From IMG/VR virus record IMGVR_UViG_2684622670_000007, positions 1 to 5,383 of that record: 5,383 nucleotides of DNA, one strand, 5' to 3'. This DNA comes from a virus (taxonomy: Duplodnaviria > Heunggongvirae > Uroviricota > Caudoviricetes). Below are positions 1,383-4,701 of this stretch, in pieces. The first letter of the stretch is position 1. Each line of letters starts with the position of its first letter. The notes under the pieces are model-generated. The model made no database searches and was not told where the DNA came from. It saw nothing but the letters and a program-made list of their open reading frames with translations. Both the position numbers and the translations under genes were made by a program.

Positions 1383-1655
1383 CTACCTGCCTTGACGAAA
1401 GACCTTAAGAACATCGTTAAACTGACTTACGGATATGTCTTCTTTGAGCAGCTTTTCCAGAAATGCGTTTGGAATGAACGTATATCCCTCCTCTTTTGGT
1501 AGGGACGGGAGCAACGCCCTCGCCTCAGCCTTCAGAAGCTCAGTTCTGGCAACTTTCACAAAAGAGATTTGAGTTCTTTCATCAATGGAACGAAGGAAGC
1601 GCAAACGCTTAACTTCTTTGTGTGTATCAGGTGGATTAAAGCCTTTGTTTCGCAT
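1383..1655 (-). CDS. Hypothetical protein (90 aa) between cII and the O-like gene
   Basis: Internal ATG (revcomp 1653-1655) is preceded by GAGGTAA at good spacing. The 146-aa version in the ORF track would overlap the cII-like gene by about 145 bp in another frame, so the shorter start is preferred. The stop lies 2 nt before the O-like ATG. No homologue recognised by eye. Confidence 0.5.
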   Translation of the reverse strand: MRNKGFNPPDTHKEVKRLRFLRSIDERTQISFVKVARTELLKAEARALLPSLPKEEGYTFIPNAFLEKLLKEDISVSQFNDVLKVFRQGR

Positions 1656-1666
1656 ATAATTACCTC

Positions 1667-1735
1667 GTTGGATGTTATTAAAATTCCATTTGTATTTGAT
1701 CAGAACGCTCGGTCTTGCACACCGGGCTTTTTTTA
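1667..1735 (+). ncRNA. OOP-like antisense RNA (promoter pO-like plus intrinsic terminator), antisense to the 3' end of cII
   Basis: Perfect -10 TATAAT at 1655-1660 with a weak -35. Plus-strand hairpin 1707-1713/1721-1727 (7 bp, one G-U) followed by T7 (1728-1734) lies inside the cII 3' coding region. The predicted ~68-nt transcript would overlap cII by ~57 nt, as lambda OOP does. Confidence 0.45.
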
Positions 1736-1977
1736 TTGGTGAGTCCATCAAGCGCATACTTAAAAGCCCTGCTAATCGGACTGATGTCTGATGCCATTCC
1801 AAAAGCACACAAGACCGAAGCAATAAATCTCCAGTCCGTTCTGCTTATCTTCGATTCATGACAGCCAATCATCTTTGCCAGACCGCGCTGGGTAAGCGTT
1901 GACAGGTTGATGAGTAAATCTGTTTCTGCGCGATCAACGTCGCGCTGTGATAGTTTGCTGTAACTTGTTTGTTCCAT
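1678..1977 (-). CDS. cII: cII-like transcriptional activator (99 aa)
   Basis: The translation aligns with lambda CII from recall: HTH region ...ESKISRTDW... and C-terminus ...LTNKKSPVCKTERSDQIQMEF versus lambda ...LTNKKRPAATERSEQIQMEF. Position downstream of cro and nutR is as expected. Confidence 0.85.
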   Translation of the reverse strand: MEQTSYSKLSQRDVDRAETDLLINLSTLTQRGLAKMIGCHESKISRTDWRFIASVLCAFGMASDISPISRAFKYALDGLTNKKSPVCKTERSDQIQMEF

Positions 1978-1987
1978 TTCTTATGAT
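1955..1987 (+). promoter_or_regulatory. PRE-like cII-dependent promoter: TTGC-N6-TTGT (1955-1968) with candidate -10 TATGAT (1982-1987), directed toward cI and antisense to cro
   Basis: Lambda CII binds TTGC-N6-TTGC repeats flanking the -35 of PRE, located over the first codons of cII on the opposite strand. The same geometry is seen here (cII ATG = revcomp 1975-1977). The -10 is inferred from spacing. Confidence 0.5.
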
Positions 1988-2004: not shown

Positions 2005-2027
2005 ACGCATCTGTTGATGCGTTTTTT
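2005..2027 (+). terminator. Intrinsic-terminator-like hairpin plus T-run on the plus strand in the cro-cII intergenic region
   Basis: ACGCATC (2005-2011), loop tgtt, GATGCGT (2016-2022), then a T-run through 2027. On the minus strand (cII leader) the same hairpin is preceded by an A-run and is not terminator-like. Function uncertain. Confidence 0.35.
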
Positions 2028-2028
2028 G

Positions 2029-2067
2029 TGGGGACGAATCATCCCCGACCTGATTGTTTAAAGAGCG
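2029..2067 (-). promoter_or_regulatory. nutR-like site: boxA (minus-strand CGCTCTTTAAACAA, plus coords 2054-2067) and boxB hairpin (plus coords 2029-2047)
   Basis: boxA is close to the recalled consensus CGCTCTTTAACAA. The hairpin GGGGA-ugauucg-UCCCC reads the same as the one downstream of PL (3761-3779). It lies between cro and cII, as lambda nutR does. Confidence 0.6.
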
Positions 2068-2074
2068 GTGTTAC

Positions 2075-2299
2075 TTATGCTGCCTGATTCGGTTTTGGAA
2101 ACAGGTGTGGCAAATCGGGGCGAATTTCGTAAGCCTTGATCTGCCCTCCAGTGGCGTTAACGATGGCGGTAACTTTCTCTGGAGAGACCAACCCGCCTTT
2201 CAGCCATTTGTGTACTGCTGGCTGCGTTACACCACACTTGTCGGCAAGGCGCTTTTGGCTACCGACAATTTTCAAGGCTCGTTGAATTACTAAATTCAT
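2075..2299 (-). CDS. cro: Cro-like repressor, HTH_XRE family (74 aa from the preferred start; ORF track extends to 2320)
   Basis: HTH segment GSQKRLADKCGVTQPAVHKW. First gene downstream of predicted PR. The ATG at 2297-2299 is preceded by AGAGGT at 7-nt spacing, whereas the ATG at 2318-2320 has no SD and lies about 6 nt from the predicted transcription start. Confidence 0.75.
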   Translation of the reverse strand: MNLVIQRALKIVGSQKRLADKCGVTQPAVHKWLKGGLVSPEKVTAIVNATGGQIKAYEIRPDLPHLFPKPNQAA

Positions 2300-2332
2300 G
2301 AGCATACCTCTTGTGGTCATTACTTATAACCA

Positions 2333-2361
2333 AAGATAACTCAAGTTATAAAAAATAGCAA
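2333..2361 (-). promoter_or_regulatory. PR-like promoter (minus strand): -35 TTGCTA (2356-2361), 17-bp spacer, -10 TATCTT (2333-2338)
   Basis: Sigma70-like hexamers overlapping OR2 and OR1. The same -10 hexamer and flanking AGTTATCTTT are found at the predicted PL. Confidence 0.55.
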
Positions 2362-2398
2362 TAACCTTTGTTATTTTACTTTGGATAACCGTAGTTAT
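2336..2398. promoter_or_regulatory. Tripartite right operator: OR1 2336-2349 (ATAACtcaaGTTAT), OR2 2361-2374 (ATAACctttGTTAT), OR3 2385-2398 (ATAACcgtaGTTAT)
   Basis: Three perfect 14-bp palindromes of form ATAAC-N4-GTTAT with 24-25 bp centre-to-centre spacing, between divergent cro and cI. Related sites occur in the OL region. Confidence 0.7.
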
Positions 2399-2401
2399 AG
2401 A
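2373..2401 (+). promoter_or_regulatory. PRM-like promoter for cI: -10 TATAGA (2396-2401), poor -35; the cI mRNA is probably leaderless or nearly so
   Basis: The -10 overlaps OR3 and the predicted start is 1-3 nt before the cI ATG (2411), as for lambda PRM. The weak -35 is consistent with an activator-dependent promoter. Inference only. Confidence 0.4.
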
Positions 2402-2410
2402 TTTGTGGGT

Positions 2411-3118
2411 ATGAAAACATTCGCAGAAAGACTAAATGCAGCCATGAGCTCAGCAGGTGTATCGCAATCACAGCTTGCTGACATGGTTGGAATATCTCAG
2501 CCAGCCATACAGAAGATGTCATCCGGTAAAACAAACGGATCTCGCAAGATGGTTGAATTAGCCAATGCTTTAAAAGTACGCCCTGAATGGCTTAGCTCTG
2601 GTATTGGTGAAATGAGGGATGGTACACATGAAGAACCATCCAATGTCCGTGAATCATCTTTAAAAGCTGTGGTATGGGAAGATATTAAAAGAAACGATGA
2701 CGAGTTTGTCGCGTTGCCTCTTCTTAACGTTTCGCTTTCAGCTGGAAGCGGTAGCTGCGAGCTAGAGGAATCATCAGAGTTCTCTTTGGTTTTCAGAAAG
2801 TACTATCTGAAAAAGATGGGGGTATCTGAAAGATCAGCCAAGCTAGTTAGGGTTGTAGGGCAAAGCATGGAACCAACGCTTCACGACGGAGATGTTGTTG
2901 GTGTTAACACACAAGATACCACAATCAGAGATGGTAAAACCTACGCTATTTGCCAGTCTGATTTGTTACGAGTAAAAACATTAATCGCCACCCCTACATC
3001 GGTGATAATCAGATCAATAAATCGCGAAGAGTACCCAGATGAAGTAATGGATAGAGATGAATTTCATGAAACCGTAAGGATTATTGGCAGAGTATTCTGG
3101 TCGTCTCATAGTTGGTAA
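2411..3118 (+). CDS. cI: CI-like prophage repressor: N-terminal HTH_XRE domain plus C-terminal S24 (LexA-type) autopeptidase domain
   Basis: HTH QSQLADMVGISQPAIQKM; S24 motifs GQSMEP (Ser nucleophile) and RVKTL (Lys); candidate Ala-Gly cleavage site in LSAGSG. The ORF track begins at TTG 2381, but the ATG at 2411 (MKTFAERL...) fits the promoter geometry. Confidence 0.9.
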   Translation: MKTFAERLNAAMSSAGVSQSQLADMVGISQPAIQKMSSGKTNGSRKMVELANALKVRPEWLSSGIGEMRDGTHEEPSNVRESSLKAVVWEDIKRNDDEFVALPLLNVSLSAGSGSCELEESSEFSLVFRKYYLKKMGVSERSAKLVRVVGQSMEPTLHDGDVVGVNTQDTTIRDGKTYAICQSDLLRVKTLIATPTSVIIRSINREEYPDEVMDRDEFHETVRIIGRVFWSSHSW

Positions 3119-3158
3119 CCGATAATCAGAAGAAGACTTACGGAAGTGCGGAGGGATA

Positions 3159-3455
3159 ATGGAATTTCTGATAGTTTTTGTTGTTGTTTTGGTCATCATT
3201 CTTTTTGTTTTGCTAAGCATTAGCAAAAAGCTATCTCAAACGATTGAACATAGCTCTAATCGCGCAAAAGAAGAAGACCATCTAATTGATATAAAAGAGA
3301 TTCTCTCTGATATAAAAATCACATTAGATGAAATAAAATACACAACAGATCTAATTGAACAGTATAAAATACCAACCCCAAACGAGAGAAAAGCAATAGA
3401 TCAATATCGTATTGACTTAGAAATCGACGAAATGCTAAGCAAAAGAAAAGACTAA
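3159..3455 (+). CDS. Small membrane protein (98 aa): one N-terminal transmembrane helix then a charged, probably coiled-coil domain; sits in the position of lambda rexAB and is probably co-transcribed with cI
   Basis: Strong SD GGAGG (3150-3154) before the ATG. Hydrophobic residues 3-21 (FLIVFVVVLVIILFVLLSI) are followed by a K/E/D-rich region. Markedly AT-rich compared with the flanking phage genes. Lies 41 bp downstream of cI and is followed by an intrinsic terminator. Confidence 0.6.
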   Translation: MEFLIVFVVVLVIILFVLLSISKKLSQTIEHSSNRAKEEDHLIDIKEILSDIKITLDEIKYTTDLIEQYKIPTPNERKAIDQYRIDLEIDEMLSKRKD

Positions 3456-3460
3456 AAACA

Positions 3461-3490
3461 CCCGGCCTCAGCGCCGGGTTTTCTTTTCCT
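3461..3490 (+). terminator. Rho-independent terminator ending the cI operon; possibly bidirectional
   Basis: Stem CCCGGC (3461-3466) / GCCGGG (3473-3478), 6-nt loop, then TTTTCTTTTCC. An A-run upstream (3454-3458) gives a U-run for the opposite strand. Confidence 0.75.
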
Positions 3491-3608
3491 GCCGTCCCCC
3501 CCCCAATCAACCATCCTCATCATAGACAAGCATCAAGCCAAAGGTAGCACTTTCACCCCGCACGCAAGCCCTCAAACACCAATCAATCAGCAACATTTAC
3601 AAAAATAA

Positions 3609-3691
3609 AATACCTTTGTTATCCATCACCTATAACTTATTTACCATAAAATATAAACTAAGTTATTGACCACACCTATAACCTAAGTTAT
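3609..3691. promoter_or_regulatory. Left operator region: OL1 3678-3691 (ATAACctaaGTTAT, perfect), OL2 3653-3666 (one mismatch), weaker OL3-like site 3609-3622
   Basis: Same 14-bp ATAAC-N4-GTTAT family as the OR sites. OL1 and OL2 are 25 bp apart and overlap the predicted PL hexamers. Confidence 0.6.
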
Positions 3692-3694
3692 CTT
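3666..3694 (+). promoter_or_regulatory. PL-like promoter: -35 TTGACC (3666-3671), 17-bp spacer, -10 TATCTT (3689-3694)
   Basis: Sigma70-like hexamers overlapping OL2 and OL1, directed toward nutL and the N-like gene. Confidence 0.55.
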
Positions 3695-3740
3695 TAAGCC
3701 ATCAGCAGGACGCAGGAAGCCAAACGGAACAGATTGGCAG

Positions 3741-3779
3741 GCTCTTTAACATTGATGGAATGGGGATGATTCGTCCCCA
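3741..3779 (+). promoter_or_regulatory. nutL-like site: boxA GCTCTTTAACA (3741-3751) and boxB hairpin (3761-3779)
   Basis: boxA-like motif followed 9 nt later by a hairpin, TGGGGA-tgattcg-TCCCCA, that matches the nutR hairpin at 18 of 19 positions. Lies between PL and the N-like gene. Confidence 0.6.
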
Positions 3780-3933: not shown

Positions 3934-4140
3934 GTGAAAGCAAGAGAGATTCGCAAACTCGAACGCGCTCGTAAGCACAAAGAGGCGACAGCAAAACGTA
4001 AAAATATTGACCGTGTTTCAATGGTGGTTTCGCTAGCAGGAGCGAATAGGAAGAAGGTTGAATGTGGTTCGTGCTGCCTGCCAAACGTAGCTCTTTACGC
4101 GGCAGGCTACCGGAAATCAAAACAACTGACGGCGAGGTGA
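3934..4140 (+). CDS. N: N-like transcription antitermination protein (68 aa, GTG start)
   Basis: First gene downstream of PL and nutL. Arginine/lysine-rich N-terminus (MKAREIRKLERARKHKEATAKRK). The C-terminal part resembles N proteins of P22-type phages from recall (unverified). Strong SD GGAGG (3923-3927) 6 nt before the GTG. Confidence 0.7.
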   Translation: MKAREIRKLERARKHKEATAKRKNIDRVSMVVSLAGANRKKVECGSCCLPNVALYAAGYRKSKQLTAR

Positions 4141-4161: not shown

Positions 4162-4701
4162 CTAAATTAGCTCATCAGCTTTACCAGCAAAGCGCATATA
4201 ACACTCATAGAACCAGACGTCAGGTATAACAAATTTCTCTTTACCTGACGCGCTGTAAGTCACACCTGAGCGATGGAGAAGGCCTTTTCTCATAAGAGAT
4301 AAAGCGACCGGATCGCCGTGCTTAAGTACGATTTTGTTATTTGCCATAACAGCAAATGCTAAAACCTCTTTTTCCTGAATACTCAGAGAATTGAACAGGC
4401 GCTCAGTCTCCACAATTACTTTAGCCTCATCTCTCTTACTGAGATATTTTTTATATCTGTCTGAAGATGCCAGAAATATAAACTCCATCACCCTGTTCAG
4501 AACATAACTGATACACAAAAGCATTGCGTAATACATCCAGTGATCTGGAAGTATTTCGGGGTTCCTTATATCTACCCACTCTTTAATTGATGCTGGGGTG
4601 ATTATTATCAAGGCAATTAAAATAATAAGCATATGAATTAACTGTTGTAGCGTAAGACCACGCAGGAAGAAACGTAATAGTTCCTGCCACCAGTTACTCA
4701 T
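4162..4701 (-). CDS. Membrane protein (179 aa), putative superinfection exclusion protein B (SieB)-like
   Basis: Convergent with and abutting the N-like gene, the arrangement I recall for lambda sieB and N. N-terminal hydrophobic segment (LIHMLIILIALIIITP) and soluble C-terminal domain. GGAG-type SD before the ATG. Low GC. The assignment rests on position, size and topology only. Confidence 0.5.
   Translation of the reverse strand: MSNWWQELLRFFLRGLTLQQLIHMLIILIALIIITPASIKEWVDIRNPEILPDHWMYYAMLLCISYVLNRVMEFIFLASSDRYKKYLSKRDEAKVIVETERLFNSLSIQEKEVLAFAVMANNKIVLKHGDPVALSLMRKGLLHRSGVTYSASGKEKFVIPDVWFYECYMRFAGKADELI

Follow-up and report, generated by a model that had tools for sequence, protein, structure and literature searches.

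A putative 14-bp operator set for the immunity switch of a lambdoid prophage, shared with phage HK639 and several Shiga toxin-converting phages

The repressor of phage 434 binds operators of 14 bp in which five outer bases on either side are contacted, and changes to the non-contacted center alter affinity by up to 50-fold (PMC1636474). Among Shiga toxin (Stx) phages, 933W has operators with a conserved C:G base pair at position 5 and a pyrimidine at position 6, and K46 of its repressor is essential for specific binding and has been modeled on the G of this position-5 pair (PMC3317979). 'Hair-trigger' spontaneous induction has been proposed for Stx phages (PMC5977221). Here we analyze a stretch of viral DNA of 5,383 nucleotides (hereafter the window) and propose, with considerable confidence, that its ATAAC-N4-GTTAT sites act as operators in an immunity switch of the lambda/434 type and are bound by both CI and Cro.

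The 5.4-kb window holds the region for immunity and early control of a lambdoid prophage and is inverted with respect to the lambda map. Pfam matches run in N-cI-cro-cII-O order (N_peptide, Peptidase_S24/HTH_3, P22_Cro/YdaS, Phage_CII and Phage_rep_O). On the minus strand lie the replication gene O (433-1380), a small ORF (1383-1658), cII (1678-1977) and cro (2075-2299, 74 aa), whose product is a helix-turn-helix protein of the P22_Cro/YdaS type (PF15943, 1.5e-17, and PF14549) and whose start agrees with the annotated Cro of Escherichia phage SH2026Stx1. The cI gene (2411-3118, plus strand, 235 aa) encodes an N-terminal helix-turn-helix domain (HTH_3) and a LexA-like S24 C-terminal domain (Peptidase_S24, 1.6e-17). 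The cleavage residues Ala111-Gly112, Ser152 and Lys189 are present in CI, with G112, S152 and K189 invariant in the CI alignment, and SOS-dependent self-cleavage is therefore expected. Beyond cI lie a gene for an N-like antiterminator (3934-4140, plus strand, 68 aa; PF25694 N_peptide, 2.7e-16; phrog_271) and sieB (4162-4701, minus strand).

Exact searching with ATAACNNNNGTTAT (ATAAC-N4-GTTAT) returned four matches in the window, starting at 2336, 2361, 2385 and 3678, where 0.01 are expected by chance; none of 200 shuffles gave four. Three of them occupy the 111-bp gap (2300-2410) between cro on the minus strand and cI on the plus strand. OR1 (2336-2349, ATAACTCAAGTTAT) is cro-proximal and overlaps the candidate PR -10, OR2 (2361-2374, ATAACCTTTGTTAT) lies between the candidate PR -35 and PRM -35 and adjoins both, and OR3 (2385-2398, ATAACCGTAGTTAT) is cI-proximal and overlaps the spacer and -10 of candidate PRM. 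The fourth, OL1 (3678-3691, ATAACCTAAGTTAT), overlaps the PL -10, and allowing one mismatch added OL2 (3653-3666, ATAAACTAAGTTAT), which has A rather than C at position 5 and is 25 bp from OL1; both OL sites are upstream of the N-like gene. An earlier note, made from this DNA alone, had described the OR sites as perfect 14-bp palindromes that differ only in the central 4 bp, OL1 as perfect, and OL2 as having one mismatch. The three exact OR matches confirm the half-sites, and the exact and one-mismatch searches bear out what was said of the OL pair. The word palindrome holds for the outer 5 + 5 bp, which are inverted repeats, and not for the center: the central tetranucleotides of the four exact sites (TCAA, CTTT, CGTA and CTAA) are asymmetric, none being self-complementary, and the sites are better described as 5-4-5 repeats.

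Matches with two mismatches start at 2326, 2936 and 3609. The first (2326-2339) overlaps OR1 and was not counted as an operator, its ATAAC half being absent in HK639-type lineages, and the second (2936-2949) falls inside cI and was taken as chance; the third is considered with the OL region below. A third full OL site was not found in the window, where there is at best a half-site.

We compared these sites with the corresponding regions of SH2026Stx1, PA28, the Stx1a-converting phage Stx1a_10051, HK639 and 933W, and with 80 viral (IMG/VR) contigs and 17 loci from bacterial genomes, all coding for proteins related to the CI N-terminal domain. All 87 loci at which CI has the recognition helix SQPAIQKM possess three OR sites, 25 and 24 bp apart, the last of which stops 11-12 bp short of the cI ATG, and none of the 16 loci without this helix does; the 16 include 933W and relatives of 37-63% identity. 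The helix and the OR1-3/OL1-2 motif occur together in the window, Stx1a_10051, SH2026Stx1, PA28, HK639, the 80 IMG/VR contigs and prophages of Enterobacter and Kluyvera. The 87 loci reduce to 28 distinct OR segments and about eight lineages, including prophages of Enterobacter bugandensis and Kluyvera, so the co-occurrence of helix and operator partly reflects inheritance.

Within these lineages, conservation is concentrated in the half-sites. Across eight lineage representatives, 27 of 30 half-site columns are invariant, against 4/12 in the centers and 7/21 in the spacers (Fisher p = 6e-6); OR2 holds all three of the variable half-site columns, and six of the seven invariant spacer columns make up the PRM -35, TTTACT. 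The half-site mismatches that do occur, in PA28 and in the lineages L046 and L076, are confined to OR2, and OR1 and OR3 are always perfect. Invariant half-sites amid drifting centers and spacers point to selection on the presumably contacted bases and not to recent common ancestry. The same pattern bears on whether the repeats have a regulatory role at all. A 10-mer, AGTTATCTTT, occurs at 2332-2341 (minus strand) and 3686-3695 (plus strand), once in each candidate promoter, where 0.02 are expected; it contains the TATCTT that the earlier note had rightly pointed out in both PR and PL. This sharing, in a region that is A/T-rich, would fit a duplicated promoter module, PL resembling PR, or a chance A/T-rich repeat. 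We consider the chance that this is the whole explanation to be negligible: OR2 and OR3 lie outside any PR/PL duplication, four exact sites stand against the 0.01 expected, and half-sites that stay invariant while centers and spacers diverge indicate selective constraint rather than recent duplication.

If the repeats are operators, they should lie over the promoters of the switch. Candidate PL (3666-3694, plus strand) consists of TTGACC, a 17-bp spacer and TATCTT, points toward nutL and N, was called by a simple promoter scan at 9/12, and has the position of the pL annotated in the HK639 GenBank record. Candidate PR (2333-2361, minus strand), read from the sequence as TTGCTA (2361-2356), a 17-bp spacer and TATCTT (2338-2333), leads leftward into cro and matches the sigma-70 consensus at 8/12, below the threshold of the scan, which did not list it. 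Candidate PRM (2375-2403, plus strand), with TTTACT (2375-2380), a 17-bp spacer and TAGATT (2398-2403), also has 8/12 and was not called. Conservation adds to these scores, as TATnnT of PR is kept in all lineages in the same layout as in PL, and its final T, which lies outside OR1, is invariant in the 28 distinct OR segments; for PRM, the -35 is invariant and the -10 is conserved as TAnATT in all lineages while adjacent bases vary. The promoter assignments of the earlier note gain some support from the scan for PL and from the conserved key bases, and are weakened for PR by its score. We regard PR, PL and PRM as plausible assignments at the level of consensus matching, with their critical bases conserved.

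The position of PR could be questioned further, in that the HK639 record annotates pR as TTGGGTTATCTTTTCATTAATCCAGTAAT, with a -35 (TTGGGT) inside OR1 and a -10 (AGTAAT). Transferred to the window, this would leave the operators as described and move PR one step downstream, its -35, TTGAGT, lying in the center of OR1 and its -10 nearer to cro, and the 8/12 score of the upstream candidate, together with its absence from the scan, would agree with such a move. However, the -35 that it needs in the window is poor, the equivalent -10 offers no hexamer having both A2 and T6 (TATAAG, 2328-2323, misses T6), and the region downstream of TATCTT is not conserved between lineages, whereas TATnnT is. We therefore consider the downstream PR unlikely and retain the upstream one; OR1 would repress a downstream PR too, so the operator interpretation is unaffected.

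On the other side of OR, transcription from PRM is predicted to begin on the first base of the cI start codon in PA28 and HK639, and in the window on that base (2411) or 1 nt ahead of it; no Shine-Dalgarno sequence was found before the cI ATG in any lineage. For these reasons the cI mRNA is probably leaderless, as in lambda. The center of OR2 lies ~43 bp upstream of the predicted start of the cI mRNA, as in lambda, and that of OR3 ~19 bp upstream, an arrangement that reproduces the lambda geometry of activation and autorepression.

Since all OR half-sites of the window are perfect, it may be the four non-contacted central base pairs that rank the OR sites by affinity, on the analogy of 434, which would make OR3, with its G/C-richer center, the weakest. 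Counted by lineage, the centers contain 2-3 G/C in OR3, 0-2 in OR1 and 0-1 in OR2, and the center of OR3 is the most G/C-rich of the OR sites or tied for it in all eight lineages (tied with OR1 in L046). In the OL region, the OL1+OL2 pair at 25-bp spacing is found downstream of cI at 82 of the 87 loci, and most of the five others end too soon after OR to show OL. The left half of OL2 is ATAAA, ATAAG or ATGAA, and never ATAAC, in 44 distinct OL segments, and the weakened half-site thus appears to be selected rather than accidental. Two weak candidate sites, at 3609-3622 (AATACCTTTGTTAT) and 3632-3645 (ATAACTTATTTACC), have one perfect half-site each, which places everted perfect halves, GTTAT (3618-3622) and ATAAC (3632-3636), 9 bp apart upstream of OL2. 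This GTTAT-N9-ATAAC element is kept in nearly all of the 44 segments, in some with single-base changes, and the outer halves are degenerate; the 3609-3645 sites may be a weak OL3/OL4 or a site for another factor.

A more tentative possibility, which we think rather doubtful, is that the ranking arises purely by indirect readout, with the ATAAA form of OL2 and the everted GTTAT-N9-ATAAC serving as auxiliary sites for a long-range CI complex. Were OR3 almost equal to OR1 in strength, PRM would limit itself tightly, which would give low repressor levels and 'hair-trigger' spontaneous induction in a group to which Stx1a and Stx2a phages belong.

Among repressors of solved structure, the closest relative of the CI N-terminal domain is that of 434 (1per/2or1), which a phmmer search against the PDB matched at E 3.6e-8, without gaps over residues 6-67. 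The two systems have in common the 14-bp, 5+4+5 operator geometry and three OR sites that overlap divergent PR and PRM; Q28 of 434, at the first position of the recognition helix, corresponds to Q30 and Arg43 to R45, and operator bases 1, 3 and 4 are A in both. The 434 half-site, however, is ACAA(G/T), in operators of the form ACAA-N6-TTGT read by Gln28, Gln29 and Gln33, and differs from ATAAC at positions 2 and 5, while the recognition helix reads QPAIQK in the window and QQSIEQ in 434 (Q29 to P31, Q33 to K35). There are also three OL sites in 434 and two strong ones evident in the window, and every OR half-site of the window is perfect, unlike those of 434. Given the differences in half-site and recognition helix, the two are predicted to be heteroimmune: the window would work like 434 but, with its ATAAC half-site and Q30/P31/K35 helix, is not imm434.

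The likeness to lambda lies in the architecture. The gene order N-PL/OL-cI-PRM/OR/PR-cro-cII-O, three OR sites at a center spacing of ~24 bp, the probably leaderless cI mRNA and a LexA-like CI C-terminal domain with Ala-Gly and Ser/Lys are common to both, and with OL 1.3 kb from OR in the window, lambda-like looping is conceivable. In contrast, lambda operators are 17 bp long with a TATCACCGCCAGTGGTA-type consensus, the lambda CI N-terminal domain gives only a marginal match to the CI of the window (E 0.76), and Cro is of a different type from lambda Cro. A paper on cross-binding by lambda CI proved not relevant to the window sites.

HK639 (NC_016158) is far closer. It has the helix SQPAIQKM, a CI that is ~85% identical to that of the window over residues 1-71 and a Cro that is 84% identical, and the same half-sites, three OR sites at 25/24 bp and OL1/OL2 layout. 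The two differ in that the CI C-terminal domain of HK639 has diverged strongly (whole-protein identity is 44%), put-like antiterminator RNAs take the place of the N and nut elements of the window, and the central 4 bp and spacers are not the same; the HK639 record annotates promoters only, with no operators and with pR placed elsewhere. HK639 and the window are predicted to share immunity specificity. As HK639 keeps the operators despite an unrelated CI C-terminal domain, the pairing of N-terminal domain and operator would be the specificity unit, and the sequence evidence indicates that the operators, Cro and this domain move as a single immunity module.

With 933W, the window has in common a CI/Cro switch of the Stx-phage kind, three OR and only two OL sites, and K35 of its CI aligns with K46 of 933W, position 5 of the operators being C:G in the window too. 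Nevertheless, the 933W operators are 15 bp long around a central base pair (e.g. CGTACTGAAAGTACG), against 14 bp here, the CI and Cro proteins are 23% and 36% identical, and no ATAAC-N4-GTTAT site was found in the 933W immunity region. PA28 Cro has been annotated as 933W-like, and 933W immunity was accordingly considered for the window; the 15-bp sites and the CI identity rule it out. Two further systems were set aside: the operators of BAA2326 (an O104:H4 Stx phage), which belong to a lambda-like CI, have weak symmetry and are unrelated (PMC5977221), and the PaaR2/YdaS switch of CP-933P, considered for the YdaS Pfam match of Cro, whose repeats (GTTTAGTAA) are unrelated.

Comparison with known lambdoid operator sets, which the earlier note had proposed, thus finds the ATAAC set in HK639 and Stx phages and not in imm434, imm-lambda or imm933W. 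The view of that note that these operators define the immunity specificity of the prophage gains support, as half-sites, number and spacing are kept wherever the recognition helix is shared; HK639 has the DNA-binding domain, Cro and operators in common with the window, and 933W is without the sites. Loci with more distant CI relatives, L088-L091 (prophages of Rahnella, Xenorhabdus and Mixta), have CI N-terminal domains that are 57-63% identical, with the helix SQP(A/S)IW(K/R) or SVPSIWKL. Their 14-bp sites keep the distances to the cI ATG but have altered half-sites, e.g. ATAACTTAAGGTAT and TTAACTAAAGGTAT; with the helix SQP(A/S)IW(K/R), shifted half-sites such as ATAAC...GGTAT are seen. In these loci, it looks as if recognition helix and operator co-vary.

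It could still be argued that conspicuous repeats need not be CI sites, in that the footprinted CI sites of BAA2326 show little rotational symmetry or mutual similarity (PMC5977221). By analogy, the repeats of the window would serve Cro alone, or another phage or host factor, and the sequences recognized by CI would be different and less obvious. Several observations speak against this and make it very improbable in our view: the motif tracks the CI recognition helix (87/87 versus 0/16), including in HK639 with its different CI C-terminal domain; the 5+4+5 geometry is that of 434; and the positions of the sites relative to PRM match the lambda layout. Cro co-varies as well, as would be expected if CI and Cro share the sites.

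Taking the sites as operators of both proteins, we propose that CI dimers would bind the 14-bp sites through the 434-like helix-turn-helix, reading ATAAC, the outer 5 bp on each side, with no contact to the central 4 bp, and that Cro would bind the same sites. CI at OR1 and OR2 would cover the PR -10 and adjoin the -35, turning off cro, cII and O, and CI at OL1 and OL2 would cover PL and turn off N. From OR2, beside the PRM -35, CI could activate transcription of cI, and as OR3 overlaps the PRM -10, its occupation would turn cI off. DNA damage would release the switch through RecA-stimulated self-cleavage of CI.

The window contains further elements around the switch. Candidate nutL (3741-3778, plus strand), read from the sequence, consists of boxA GCTCTTTAACA (3741-3751) and a boxB hairpin GGGGATGATTCGTCCCC (3762-3778), and candidate nutR (2030-2067, minus strand) of boxA CGCTCTTTAAACA (2055-2067) and a boxB at 2030-2046; the two boxBs (GGGGAUGAUUCGUCCCC) are identical, both fold as hairpins, and the boxAs are rrn-like. 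Between cI and OL, orf98 (3159-3455, plus strand, 98 aa) is a small membrane ORF with an N-terminal hydrophobic segment, in PHROG 18389, which has no assigned function. It directly follows cI and precedes a tM-like hairpin terminator (3460-3479, plus strand), found by scan with a 7-bp stem of which six pairs are G-C, followed by a T run and situated between orf98 and OL; in the lysogen, orf98 is probably cotranscribed with cI, and it could be a moron or exclusion gene expressed in that state.

In the cII 5' end, a candidate cII-dependent PRE (1955-1987, plus strand) is seen as TTGC (1955-1958)-TGTAAC-TTGT (1965-1968); it points toward cI and has TATGAT (1982-1987) as its -10. Right after it comes a terminator-like hairpin with a T run (2005-2028, plus strand), which is unexpected, as PRE must read through cro into cI. 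An oop-like antisense RNA candidate (1655-1735, plus strand) combines a perfect TATAAT (1655-1660) with an intrinsic terminator at 1707-1727 and the T run behind it, and overlaps the cII 3' end on the opposite strand; an Rfam scan of the window, this candidate included, gave no matches at E <= 0.1. Within O, CATGTGCGG-type units repeated at 820-960 encode a His/Ala-rich repeat of the O protein and are probably ori iterons; iterons are annotated inside O of 933W.

The segment from cro to OL (2075-3720) is 98% identical to that of Stx1a_10051, and within it the cro-cI portion shows 94.5% identity with SH2026Stx1 and 78% with PA28 and a group of Stx1a phages; Cro itself is 100% identical in SH2026Stx1, 85% in PA28 and, as given above, 84% in HK639. 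The 68-aa N of the window shows no similarity to N of SH2026Stx1, so the arm on the PL side of cI is mosaic, and the group is defined solely by its cro-OR-cI module and OL sites. Among 5,426 complete Escherichia coli genomes, 166 contain a match to the cro-to-OL segment, near full length in 98, many of them O26:H11 and other Stx-producing E. coli (STEC). A full-text literature search for the consensus and for each operator sequence gave nothing relevant, the King 2011 paper on HK639 being outside its reach, and the operator code shared with HK639 and several Stx phages has apparently not been described before.

The scheme brings no new principle beyond the lambda/434 paradigm, and its value is practical, in the immunity typing of Stx and other lambdoid prophages. 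The immunity type is a common one, extending over Stx1a-converting phages, SH2026Stx1, PA28, HK639 and prophages of Enterobacter and Kluyvera, and the operator code allows immunity groups to be assigned from sequence alone. Annotators could use it to predict which prophages are homoimmune, with mutual exclusion or cross-repression, and to place PR, PL and PRM, and with the operator set defined, the hierarchy of affinities can be tested directly. For Stx phages in particular, the architecture of repressor and operators governs spontaneous induction and hence toxin output.
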